DNA of 63,848 nt, the filler included, from Alphaproteobacteria bacterium (lineage in GTDB: Bacteria > Pseudomonadota > Alphaproteobacteria > Caedimonadales > UBA9215), in assembly GCA_024280495.1 (NCBI GenBank). It is 5 parts of 5 records of this genome, joined end to end, with 100 filler letters (N's around TTAATTAATTAA, not from the genome) between each part and the next. Parts side by side here need not be neighbours in the genome. Positions count along the whole stretch, not along the records: positions 61,320 to 63,848 come from JAJRPZ010000034.1; 4 more parts are not named here. The stretch is one strand, 5' to 3'. The notes under the pieces were generated by a model, which made no database searches, had not been told where the DNA came from, and saw nothing but the letters and a program-made list of their open reading frames with translations. A program made the position numbers and the translations under genes. Of the stretch, positions 21,738-63,848 are shown piece after piece (position 1 is the first letter of the stretch; every line of letters begins with the position of its first letter).

Positions 21738-21837
21738 NNNNNNNNNNNNNNNNNNNNNNNNNNNNNNNNNNNNNNNNNNNNTTAATTAATTAANNNNNNN
21801 NNNNNNNNNNNNNNNNNNNNNNNNNNNNNNNNNNNNN
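21738..21837. other. Artificial contig spacer
   Basis: N44-TTAATTAATTAA-N44 with stops in all six frames. Confidence 0.98.
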
Positions 21838-45679: not shown

Positions 45680-45779
45680 NNNNNNNNNNNNNNNNNNNNN
45701 NNNNNNNNNNNNNNNNNNNNNNNTTAATTAATTAANNNNNNNNNNNNNNNNNNNNNNNNNNNNNNNNNNNNNNNNNNNN
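45680..45779. other. Artificial contig spacer
   Basis: N44-TTAATTAATTAA-N44. Confidence 0.98.
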
Positions 45780-55368: not shown

Positions 55369-55468
55369 NNNNNNNNNNNNNNNNNNNNNNNNNNNNNNNN
55401 NNNNNNNNNNNNTTAATTAATTAANNNNNNNNNNNNNNNNNNNNNNNNNNNNNNNNNNNNNNNNNNNN
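55369..55468. other. Artificial contig spacer
   Basis: N44-TTAATTAATTAA-N44. Confidence 0.98.
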
Positions 55469-61219: not shown

Positions 61220-61319
61220 NNNNNNNNNNNNNNNNNNNNNNNNNNNNNNNNNNNNNNNNNNNNTTAATTAATTAANNNNNNNNNNNNNNNNNNNNNNNNN
61301 NNNNNNNNNNNNNNNNNNN
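61220..61319. other. Artificial contig spacer
   Basis: N44-TTAATTAATTAA-N44. Confidence 0.98.
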
Positions 61320-61383
61320 ATTGTGTCTCACTATCTCTCCCTCTTATTTTTCTTATTCTTTTTGATCACAAAGACCCTCGTCC

Positions 61384-62004
61384 ATGTTCTTGATTTTTAC
61401 CCTTATGATCATAAGATTAATAATTTCCATGGAAATGCCCATAGCCTCCCATGACCAACAAATGCAAACACCTCCCCTGGGGTTAACTGCCCTCAAAAAA
61501 AATTACAATTCTGACCTTTTTTACTATATTCACACCCTTGATTTTATGAACTTAGGTGATTCAAATGGACAAAAGATGCCTCTTTCTGAATATGACCCTA
61601 AAACCATCCAATCCTGGGTTGATGTTATTGAAAAACTTGAAAACTCTCGAATTTTGTTGCCCTTTTTAATGACATTTTATTATGGATATGCGCCCCAATT
61701 AACGCCCCTTTGCGTTGATTACCTTGAGAGATATTCCACTAAAAACCCAAAGGAAAAATGGCGCTGGCTTGCCCATGCCATAATACTTTCAAGGGATAAA
61801 AAAAAACGAGAACGCTTTTCTAAAGACCTTTCAAAATGGGGAAAAGAATATGATCTCCCCCTCTTTGCAAAGGATGCCTACATCAGGTTCATGAGCAAAA
61901 ACAACAGATTAGAACATGCCCGAAGCCTTGCAAAAAACCTTCTGGAATCAGATCAAAACCTCAGTCCCGAAGAGAGAAACTTCTTAAAGCTTTTGGTGAA
62001 ATAA
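61384..62004 (+). CDS. Hypothetical membrane-anchored helical protein
   Basis: 206-aa ORF, hydrophobic N-terminus; NLGDSNGQKMPLSEYD, FYYG, KWRWLAHA. Confidence 0.7.
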   Translation: MFLIFTLMIIRLIISMEMPIASHDQQMQTPPLGLTALKKNYNSDLFYYIHTLDFMNLGDSNGQKMPLSEYDPKTIQSWVDVIEKLENSRILLPFLMTFYYGYAPQLTPLCVDYLERYSTKNPKEKWRWLAHAIILSRDKKKRERFSKDLSKWGKEYDLPLFAKDAYIRFMSKNNRLEHARSLAKNLLESDQNLSPEERNFLKLLVK

Positions 62005-62043
62005 AGCAAGAGAGAAGTAGTTAATCATTTTTACGTTATGACT

Positions 62044-63848
62044 TTAATGCGCATCATTCCAGTTGGACCCAATGCCCCACTCTACTACCAGTGGTACATC
62101 TAGATGCACGACGGATTGCATGTGTTTTTGAATTTGAGGTGCTATCTCATCTATGATGTCTTCTTTTATTTCGAAAATAAGTTCATCGTGAACTTGCAAA
62201 AGAAGACGTACATTATCGCCAATGAGAAGGCTTTTAGTTACACCATAGGGGCCAACAATGGGACAAAAAGTGTCTGAAGTGATTATTGTTTGTTTCTTTT
62301 TTAAATTTTCTTTTTTTTCTGGCATACCCAATTGAACCCCAGCAGGCATAGTCCCCCCAAATAGGTCCATTTGTGGTTTTTTTGTCTTGGGTTCAGAGGC
62401 ATTAAACTCTAGGGCCGAAGTAGTTGGTAACAAAGTTACTGTGGGCTTTGAACTTTTATTATAATGTTCTAAAATGGGACCAAGGGAGATCATAGCGCGT
62501 TTGATGATATCAGCAGAAGCTCCTTGCAAAGGCGCATTGACAGCCTGACGTTCCGCAAAAGCACGGCGCATGGAACTGTTATCTTGAATACCCTTAATAT
62601 AACATTTTCTTCCCATCATGGTTTCCACATATCCCTGTTCTCGGGCTTTGTGTTTTTCTGATTCCATGAAACGACGAATACCAGGATATTTTTCGAAATA
62701 AGTTTCGATGTGTTGCTTTGCTTTACCCCGTGATATACCCAATTGACGGGCCAAACCAAAGGCACTTATACCATAAATAATACCAAAATTAATGGCTTTG
62801 GCAGATCGCCTGGTCCCCCCATCAACTTCTTCAAGTGGGATGCCAAAAATATCAGAGGCCGTAATGGCGTGAATGTCTTTTCCTTCCTTAAAGGCTGTTT
62901 TCAATGAATCCATGTCAGCCATATGGGCCAAGAGACGCAATTCAATTTGAGAATAGTCGAATGAAACAAGTTTATAACCTTCCTGTGCGATGAAAGCTTT
63001 GCGAATCTCACGTCCTTCATGGGTACGAACGGGAATATTTTGAAGATTGGGATCCGATGAAGATAAACGTCCAGTGGATGTTACTGTTAACCCATAAGTC
63101 GTATGAACACGTTTGGTCTCGGGAGATATTTCATTGAGCAATGCATCGGCATAGGTACTTTTAAGTTTTGCATAATGGCGCCAAGAAAGAACTTTTTCTG
63201 CTATTTCATGACCATTTGCTGCAAGTTTATCGAGGACATCCACCCCCGTTGTATAGGCACCAGTTTTACTTTTCTTGCCACCCTCTATGGCCATATCCTC
63301 AAAAAGAATTTTTCCCAATTGTTTTGGAGACCCTATATTAAAGTCACTTCCCGCAAGCTTGTGAATATCAATGACTAGTTTTTCCAGGTGAGTTTCAAAA
63401 TGAGCACTTAATTTTTGAAGCATTACAGGATCTGCTATAATTCCCTTATGTTCCATGAGTGCCAAAACCTTGACCATAGGAAGATCCAGAGTTTTATAAA
63501 CATCAAAACTTTGAGTGGCGTGAAGATCTGCCCTTAAAAGGTGAAAAAGACGCAACGTATAATCCGCATCTTCCGCTGCATAATCACAAGCCTTATCCAA
63601 AGGTACATAAGAAAAATCAAGATTTTTAGTGGGTAAATCCTTTTCAGAATAGTCTTTCTTAAGGGCCTCCATGACCTCTTTGAATTTCGACATTTCATGG
63701 CCAAATTTTGTCTCAACAAGGCTATCAAGTCCATGGCTATGCTTTGTTCCATCGGCACAATAAGACATCACCATGGTATCCTCGTAGGAGGCGATTTCAA
63801 TGCCATAGCGCAACATCATGCGCATATCATATTTCAAGTTTTGTCCCA
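62044..63848 (-). CDS. polA: DNA polymerase I, C-terminal part (runs off window)
   Basis: YAAEDAD, FNIGSPKQL, TGRLSSSDPNLQNIP, DYSQIELR, AKAINFGIIYG, NAPLQGASADI, LLQVHDEL. Confidence 0.99.
   Translation of the reverse strand, partial: GQNLKYDMRMMLRYGIEIASYEDTMVMSYCADGTKHSHGLDSLVETKFGHEMSKFKEVMEALKKDYSEKDLPTKNLDFSYVPLDKACDYAAEDADYTLRLFHLLRADLHATQSFDVYKTLDLPMVKVLALMEHKGIIADPVMLQKLSAHFETHLEKLVIDIHKLAGSDFNIGSPKQLGKILFEDMAIEGGKKSKTGAYTTGVDVLDKLAANGHEIAEKVLSWRHYAKLKSTYADALLNEISPETKRVHTTYGLTVTSTGRLSSSDPNLQNIPVRTHEGREIRKAFIAQEGYKLVSFDYSQIELRLLAHMADMDSLKTAFKEGKDIHAITASDIFGIPLEEVDGGTRRSAKAINFGIIYGISAFGLARQLGISRGKAKQHIETYFEKYPGIRRFMESEKHKAREQGYVETMMGRKCYIKGIQDNSSMRRAFAERQAVNAPLQGASADIIKRAMISLGPILEHYNKSSKPTVTLLPTTSALEFNASEPKTKKPQMDLFGGTMPAGVQLGMPEKKENLKKKQTIITSDTFCPIVGPYGVTKSLLIGDNVRLLLQVHDELIFEIKEDIIDEIAPQIQKHMQSVVHLDVPLVVEWGIGSNWNDAH

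Follow-up and report, generated by a model that had tools for sequence, protein, structure and literature searches.

Introduction

DNA polymerase I (Pol I) is known mainly from the E. coli enzyme, and in this textbook view it works without a clamp-binding motif, while two 2026 preprints, in the passages used here, show or suggest that some lineages differ. We analysed a 63,848-nucleotide stretch of DNA (the window) from the metagenome-assembled genome of an alphaproteobacterium (GCA_024280495.1), in which the Pol I gene polA carries an insertion of about 80 residues in the palm of the polymerase domain. The insertion contains the pentapeptide QMDLF, which fits the binding consensus of the bacterial sliding clamp DnaN (beta clamp). 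We consider it likely that the insertion is a lineage-specific clamp tether on Pol I, docking on DnaN through QLDLF or QMDLF. Pol I of this family would then probably ride the sliding clamp, unlike that of E. coli.

Statements on published work below are limited to the passages of each source that we draw on. The bacterial clamp-binding consensus is QL[SD]LF, or in a wider form Q-aliphatic-x-[LM]-[FL] (PMC11139829; bioRxiv 10.64898/2026.09.19.751633). QLDLF is the strongest clamp-binding peptide according to several studies, and the key positions are 1, 4 and 5, with Gln at 1, Leu or Met at 4 and Phe or Leu at 5, while position 3 is tolerant (PMC11139829); Met at position 2, as in QMDLF, lies outside what these passages cover. 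For E. coli Pol I, no recognised clamp-binding motif is given in PMC11139829. Its interaction with the beta clamp is listed with native polyacrylamide gel electrophoresis only and no affinity (Lopez de Saro & O'Donnell 2001, as cited in PMC11139829 Table 1), and is reported as undetected in bioRxiv 10.64898/2026.09.19.751633. The E. coli clamp is reported to slow nick translation by Pol I and to speed ligation (PMC6010275). In Mycobacterium tuberculosis (Mtb), 457-QLSLLDD-463 of PolI binds the canonical cleft of the cognate clamp, and this type of Pol I motif is stated to be restricted to Mycobacteriales (Sharma & Nair, bioRxiv 10.64898/2026.09.19.751633). B. subtilis Pol I has a likely clamp motif, QLELF, the peptide of which binds clamps, and the B. 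subtilis MutS motif QLSFF binds 1.5-3-fold more weakly (bioRxiv 10.64898/2026.05.27.728225).

The Pol I described here resembles Mtb Pol I in its lineage-restricted QL[SD]L-type motif on a low-complexity, flexible stretch that is absent from E. coli Pol I. The Mtb motif is located in the EXO2-polymerase linker without a large insertion, whereas the present one starts at residue 492, within the polymerase domain and on a dedicated loop of about 80 residues, and so is not in the Mycobacteriales-type location between the exonuclease-like and polymerase domains. Unlike QLSLLDD, it ends in LF (full consensus), has a companion motif and occurs in a different lineage; its clamp binding is predicted. 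QLELF of B. subtilis belongs to the same QLxLF class in Pol I, but its third residue is Glu instead of Asp, and the passages used describe no insertion for it. An internal, non-C-terminal motif on a flexible polymerase loop is also found in E. coli Pol III alpha (920-QADMF-924), which is a family C polymerase, whereas PolA here belongs to family A. E. coli Pol I and its beta clamp are the counterparts of the two proteins considered here, and the setting proposed for them, Okazaki fragment maturation, is the one proposed for this case too.

A literature search that did not cover the preprint supplements found nothing on a palm-loop clamp motif in Pol I, nor on PolA of Holosporales. Lineage-specific loops that add a partner or a property to the Pol A fold are known, as in T7 gp5, with its thioredoxin-binding loop in the thumb, and in the inserts of Pol theta. 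The T7 gp5 loop differs from the palm loop here in its position and partner, and neither T7 gp5 nor Pol theta is known to use a beta-clamp motif. An original prediction, made from this DNA alone, had proposed that the lineage gained a clamp tether on Pol I. The comparison reported below supports that gain, while the idea is less new than it appeared, Pol I motifs having been described in Mycobacteriales and, as a likely case, in B. subtilis. What sets the present case apart is its lineage, a motif that is located within the polymerase domain and matches the full consensus, the presentation of this motif on a dedicated insertion of about 80 residues predicted to be disordered, and a companion motif.

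Results

A palm insertion in Pol I carries a clamp-type pentapeptide

The PolA fragment encoded at the end of the window has E. coli Klenow as its best solved match (E 1.6e-140), and its motifs A (DYSQIELR), B (RRSAKAINFGIIYG) and C (QVHDE) are all intact, which identifies it as a family A polymerase. The features used below are as follows, with positions counted along the window and residues along the fragment.

62044..63846, minus strand: 3' part of polA (600 codons), left open by the contig end, with the 3'-5' exonuclease domain (PF01612, E 1.5e-13, partly present) and the polymerase domain (PF00476, E 8.1e-149)
62491..62511, minus strand: DIIKRAM of helix Q, N-terminal anchor of the loop; the helix starts at residue 425 in the model and ends at residue 454-463
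62215..62475, minus strand: the insertion (residues 458-544), connecting helix Q with the palm strand of motif C; in the split alignment to 1d8y_A, Klenow has 7 residues in place of these 87
62359..62373, minus strand: QMDLF, residues 492-496, fitting the beta-clamp consensus QL[SD]LF; Q[LM][DS][LF]F in 15/15 insert-bearing sequences
62320..62349, minus strand: MPAGVQLGMP, residues 500-509, second conserved island [LM]PxG[VL]x[LW]G[MF]P; P, G, G and P invariant in 15/15
62242..62265, minus strand: CPIVGPYG, residues 528-535, third, weaker island; CP[IVLM][VI]GPYG in 12/15, in the genus-level group only
62182..62196, minus strand: QVHDE, motif C with the catalytic Asp/Glu, C-terminal anchor of the loop; the strand spans residues 546-552 in the model

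Residues 1-457 of the fragment aligned to positions 95-542 of the E. coli Klenow chain (1d8y_A), and residues 545-600 to positions 550-605. The net gain at the loop between helix Q and motif C is 80 residues, which agrees with the palm insertion of about 80 residues in the original prediction. Counted between motifs, 62206-62493 on the minus strand encodes 96 residues, MISLGP... to ...GDNVR, bounded by DIIKRA and LLLQVHDE. The earlier counts of 96 residues from KRA to LLLQVHDE, and of 16 from KRA to MIMQVHDE in E. coli, were both reproduced by translation and by the Klenow alignment. The plus strand at 62359-62373 reads aaataggtccatttg, the reverse complement of which codes Q-M-D-L-F, so that minus-strand translation bears out the position given for the pentapeptide. 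The framing was corrected: polA is on the minus strand, and the window consists of five N-joined contigs, with polA on the smallest and cut at its 5' end.

The S+T+P+K share is 40% in the insert and 25% in the whole PolA fragment. In the AlphaFold2 model, which was calculated from an alignment of 27 rows with only 6 rows over the insert, the predicted local distance difference test (pLDDT) was 29-44 for insert residues from about 466 to 540 and mostly above 80 for other residues, with an overall mean of 82.8 and a predicted template modelling score (pTM) of 0.80. Both parts of the earlier description, an S/T/P/K-rich and disordered-looking segment, are thus confirmed, pLDDT being below 50 for residues 466-539. 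QMDLF had no secondary structure in the model. The insert is predicted to be a disordered loop, and the clamp motif would thus be located in an accessible, flexible segment.

It is improbable, in our assessment, that the loop acts in cis without a protein partner, regulating the polymerase or contacting DNA and in this way changing strand displacement, fidelity or cross-talk between domains. Its position immediately before the catalytic motif-C strand would suit such a role, the same loop has insertions of 11-24 residues in PolAs of Planctomycetota, and family A polymerases such as Pol theta have functional insertion loops in thumb and palm. However, the insert is predicted to be disordered and does not pack confidently against the core, its charge is near neutral (11 K/R versus 8 D/E, thus no strong net positive), and only short linear motifs are conserved in it, as is usual for the docking of partners and not for a folded or DNA-binding element.

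The loop enlargements were seen in five PolAs of Planctomycetota/Phycisphaerae (L036, L037, L045, L049 and L053), with 11 additional residues in four and 24 in one. None of the five contained a clamp-type motif, and insertions at this place are evidently tolerated.

The pentapeptide is conserved while the rest of the insert diverges

Conservation was examined in 15 distinct insert-bearing sequences, namely 12 proteins from clusters, the window protein and two genome-derived variants, some of which are near-copies. The pentapeptide was QLDLF in 10, QMDLF in two, QLDFF in two and QLSLF in one. Q[LM][DS][LF]F had a mean pairwise identity of 0.87, compared with 0.74 in the polymerase core on either side and 0.26 in the 87 remaining columns of the insert. 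The expectation that a Q[LM]xLF-type motif is kept while its flanks diverge was therefore correct, and no insert-bearing relative had lost the motif, a loss that had been named as a point that would count against the tether. The most divergent comparison was that of P0162 with the window protein (P0001), which share 3/5 residues in the motif and 2/84 in the other insert columns; P0162 has QLSLF together with LPAGVTWGFP. Every variant respects the consensus as read from these sequences, Gln being always first, the fourth residue hydrophobic and Phe last, and Phe at position 4 in QLDFF parallels QLSFF of B. subtilis MutS. In five full-length PolAs of the family, no other pentapeptide resembling a clamp-binding motif was found except QIELL near residue 150 in two.

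The second island has a mean pairwise identity of 0.82, so both islands exceed the polymerase core in conservation. It is located 3-23 residues downstream of the pentapeptide in all 15 sequences and occurs once in the genome. The third island is replaced by GP[YF]Y in two sequences of the other genus and is absent in P0162. Short conserved islands within a loop that is predicted to be disordered and otherwise drifts are the pattern of docking sites for partner proteins.

The partner need not be DnaN. The loop might dock another replication or repair protein, or another Pol I domain, through the pair QLDLF...[LM]PxGVxLGMP or through the second motif alone, the match to the clamp consensus being incidental. 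For this explanation speak the nearly equal conservation of the second island (0.82 versus 0.87), its constant position downstream and its uniqueness in the genome, as well as the weak prediction of the DnaN complex reported below. Nevertheless, we regard it as quite unlikely: 10 of the 15 sequences have exactly the optimal clamp peptide, the clamp-critical positions are kept in every variant, no candidate partner was identified, and a spread of 3-23 residues in spacing is unusual for a single composite epitope.

The insertion was gained once within one family

Five other genomes of the same family (family f1), four from the same genus and one from a second genus, matched residues 1-600 of the query unbroken. 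In all 34 matching genomes from 20 other families, the alignment stopped at residue 453-466, and in 33 of these the match restarted at residue 542-547, a few codons downstream and on the same contig, except for G024, where the second piece is on another contig. The spacing from DIIKxAM to QVHDE was 96-109 residues in 6/6 genomes of the family and 25 in 18/18 other relatives parsed, while 6 further relatives were not parsed by the pattern. Among the 23 genomes of the order, 6 had the insert (all family f1), 16 matched in the flanks only, and one, in which polA is cut by a contig end, gave no match.

Against 1.84 billion representative proteins, a profile of the C-terminal 172 positions scored 13354 matches at E <= 0.001, of which only one crossed the insert: P0002, the PolA of G005 (231 bits, one stretch). 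The runner-up (114 bits, two stretches) matched the flanks only. Residues 420-600, compared with 5.8 billion clusters through a word index, returned 16 proteins at E <= 1e-20, of which 12 span the whole region, one carrying the source name 'DNA polymerase I [Holosporales bacterium]'. With the insert alone (residues 453-545), a query too short and divergent for this search, the same clusters gave 57 word-sharing candidates and none at E <= 0.01. In a maximum-likelihood tree (IQ-TREE) of 37 PolA rows calculated with the insert removed, all 15 insert rows fell to the same side of a branch supported at 100/100, P0162 being the deepest of them. Judging from these sequences, the insertion is a single, old gain, in a surface loop of the palm, in the ancestor of one small-genome family.

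The view that the insert lacks a function, whether as a tolerated neutral expansion, as what is left of a mobile element or intein, or as a fault of assembly, is very improbable and largely refuted. It is true that the gene is on a short contig (2529 bp) of a metagenome-assembled genome, and that reduced-genome bacteria accumulate odd insertions. However, misassembly, which had been named as a reason to give up the prediction, is excluded because the insert recurs in independent assemblies, at the same site in at least 15 distinct sequences and with the reading frame intact in all. Moreover, two of its islands are more conserved than the polymerase core. An origin from a repeat or mobile element was rejected, since blastn and tblastn searches of the genome returned no second copy (best E 0.07 and 0.5, respectively) and the GC content of the insert is near that of the polA gene (0.389 versus 0.407). 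No intein-like junction motifs were noticed in the insert, though no dedicated intein search was made, and 87 residues are shorter than known inteins.

Among the sequencing runs listed, none holding the sequence was of RNA, only three contained 5-10% of the sampled words, and no piece spanned the whole insert. A 246-nt contig from X1 matched 62050-62292 (2 differing letters, 1 gap), running from motif C into the 3' part of the insert. This match gives no useful evidence on assembly or expression.

The cognate clamp and the replicase

The cognate DnaN is full length (370 aa, C-terminal MPMRI) and matches solved clamps from end to end (E 7e-94); its identity within the family is 61-82%. By this end-to-end alignment it looks like an ordinary beta clamp. 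Co-folding was performed with the DnaN alignment and insert residues 36-100 of A1, together with three controls. The interaction prediction score from aligned errors (ipSAE) was 0.42, 0.34 and 0.28 (median 0.34), while the best control reached 0.00, and the verdict of the tool was 'weak support'. The mark used is passed by 116/157 solved complexes and 2/215 mismatched pairs, and an ipSAE of 0.60 or under is found in only 18/157 solved complexes plus both passing mismatches. The runs had at least 36% contact agreement and a partner pLDDT of at least 35, with no interface reported. Modelling of the peptide on the cognate DnaN, as had been proposed, thus came out above the controls but at weak support and without an interface.

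The replicase DnaE has an internal clamp motif, Q[QHS]SLF followed by a Gly run, in 5/6 genomes of the family (L061-L063, L065 and G000, the source assembly), while L064 gave no row. In G000, where dnaE is at C40:1243-4806 (+), the motif is at residue 955 and reads QQSLFGGGG, compared with QMDLFGG in PolA. The family's replicase thus appears to use the same motif class in a weaker form, with a polar residue at position 2 and further from the consensus than the PolA motif. An origin of the insert by copying from DnaE was rejected, hhalign aligning only 13 columns around the motif (P 0.083). A look-alike of the second island after the G000 DnaE motif, 'LPEVSL', is not kept, since relatives have LPPVVL.

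Y-family polymerase (PF00817) was found in none of the six family f1 genomes (G000-G005; G000 89% complete) and in 23/35 other relatives. B-family polymerase (PF00136) was also found in none of the six, and G000 gave only one DnaE match. Because no Y- or B-family polymerase and one DnaE were found, Pol I seems to be the only accessory polymerase of the family.

These results, together with the second island, allow a joint reading that we hold to be unlikely: the loop could be a two-handed adaptor, with Pol I as a general clamp-riding accessory polymerase. QLDLF would hold the clamp while [LM]PxG[VL]x[LW]G[MF]P would capture a second factor such as a ligase, a nuclease or a clamp-loader subunit; alternatively, the second island would be a second clamp contact lacking Gln. 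Pol I would assume the gap-filling and damage-tolerance roles held elsewhere by Pol II and Pol IV. This reading builds on the PolA motif appearing, by sequence, to be the best clamp-binding motif of the proteome, better than the replicase's own.

Clamp-type motifs in other Pol I proteins

An outgroup of 23 PolAs from unrelated phyla was compared, of which 22 were parsed. Three contained a clamp-type motif: QLNLF in Chloroflexi (L034, aa 312), QLSLF in Leptolinea (L048, aa 306) and EEKQLSLFEDNSDD in a PolA of Clostridiales (L038, aa 439). QLNLF and QLSLF follow FRSLxPRLH at a distance of about 20 residues, in the segment that links the 5'-nuclease domain of Pol I to the exonuclease domain, while EEKQLSLFEDNSDD is between the exonuclease and polymerase domains, much like QLSLLDD of Mtb. 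With such motifs in 3/22 outgroup PolAs, Pol I clamp motifs may exceed the range given in the Mtb preprint.

Contig context of the polA fragment

The source assembly G000 has 1.14 Mb in 99 contigs and is 89% complete. The window joins five of these contigs (C42, C43, C45, C48 and C57) at 21738-21837, 45680-45779, 55369-55468 and 61220-61319, each joint with paired 44-N runs, and gene neighbourhood across the joints is therefore meaningless. C57, the smallest, forms the end of the window (61320-63848), and its edge truncates polA at the 5' end. The 5'-nuclease part of polA was not found in the 89%-complete assembly, where it is missing because the contig end cuts the gene; the full-length PolAs of relatives (984-1046 aa) have the 5'-nuclease domains PF02739 and PF01367. 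On the same contig, a 206-codon open frame at 61384-62004 (+) is convergent with polA and meets it at its 3' end. Compared with E. coli Klenow, the exonuclease domain is longer by about 10 residues, a minor indel at 63601-63651 on the minus strand (fragment residues 66-82), around KDYSEKDLPT.

Discussion

We observed an insertion in Pol I that has a single origin, is predicted to be disordered and has selectively conserved motifs, in organisms with an ordinary cognate clamp. From this we infer DnaN binding, the geometry of a tether and its consequences. The pentapeptide would dock on one DnaN protomer, its Gln occupying subsite II and its Leu-Phe subsite I of the hydrophobic cleft. About 30 flexible residues on the N-terminal side of the motif and 45 on the C-terminal side would allow the polymerase core to stay at the primer end, with the clamp around the duplex to its rear. 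Pol I may in this way be recruited to, and retained at, clamps left on DNA, at the ends of Okazaki fragments and at repair gaps. Effects on processivity or on the hand-off in Okazaki fragment processing and repair, which the original prediction had raised, could take two forms: gap filling may be more processive, or nick translation may be curbed and ligation accelerated, as reported in the passages used for the E. coli clamp plus Pol I.

Several points weigh against such a clamp tether. Q[LM][SD][LF]F occurs once in the 964 stop-to-stop frames (>=150 aa) of the genome, namely in PolA, while shuffling gives an expectation of 1.7 +/- 1.3, so the lone match is at chance level and the case therefore rests on conservation among the 15 insert-bearing relatives, which raises the motif above chance. 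This conservation in turn comes from one clade, the members of which are related and non-independent. The low pLDDT of the insert is weak evidence of disorder, because only 6 alignment rows are present there. The prediction of the complex between the PolA insert and DnaN is weak and without an interface, so that binding is predicted only, and since many clamp-peptide complexes have been solved, passing the mark may only reflect likeness to known complexes. The second island, which is about as conserved and has no assigned role, could mean that the functional unit is a composite motif for another partner. No selective driver for the insert is clear, because 12/35 other relatives are also without Y-family polymerase and without the insert. 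Finally, the anchors at the end of helix Q and the start of motif C are presumably on the outer face of the palm, as in the Klenow and Taq structures, which bears on the reach of the tether.

If the insertion is a clamp tether, as we consider likely, it would be an independent and differently built gain of a clamp motif, and would point to the coupling of Pol I to the clamp as a solution that has evolved repeatedly. The organisms are uncultured, and the reading is testable with recombinant proteins alone. The second island offers a concrete handle toward a new partner. For the family itself, the insertion would serve as an experiment of nature, showing how Okazaki fragment maturation and repair depend on the position of the tether and the strength of the motif when the replisome is minimal, with only Pol III and Pol I.

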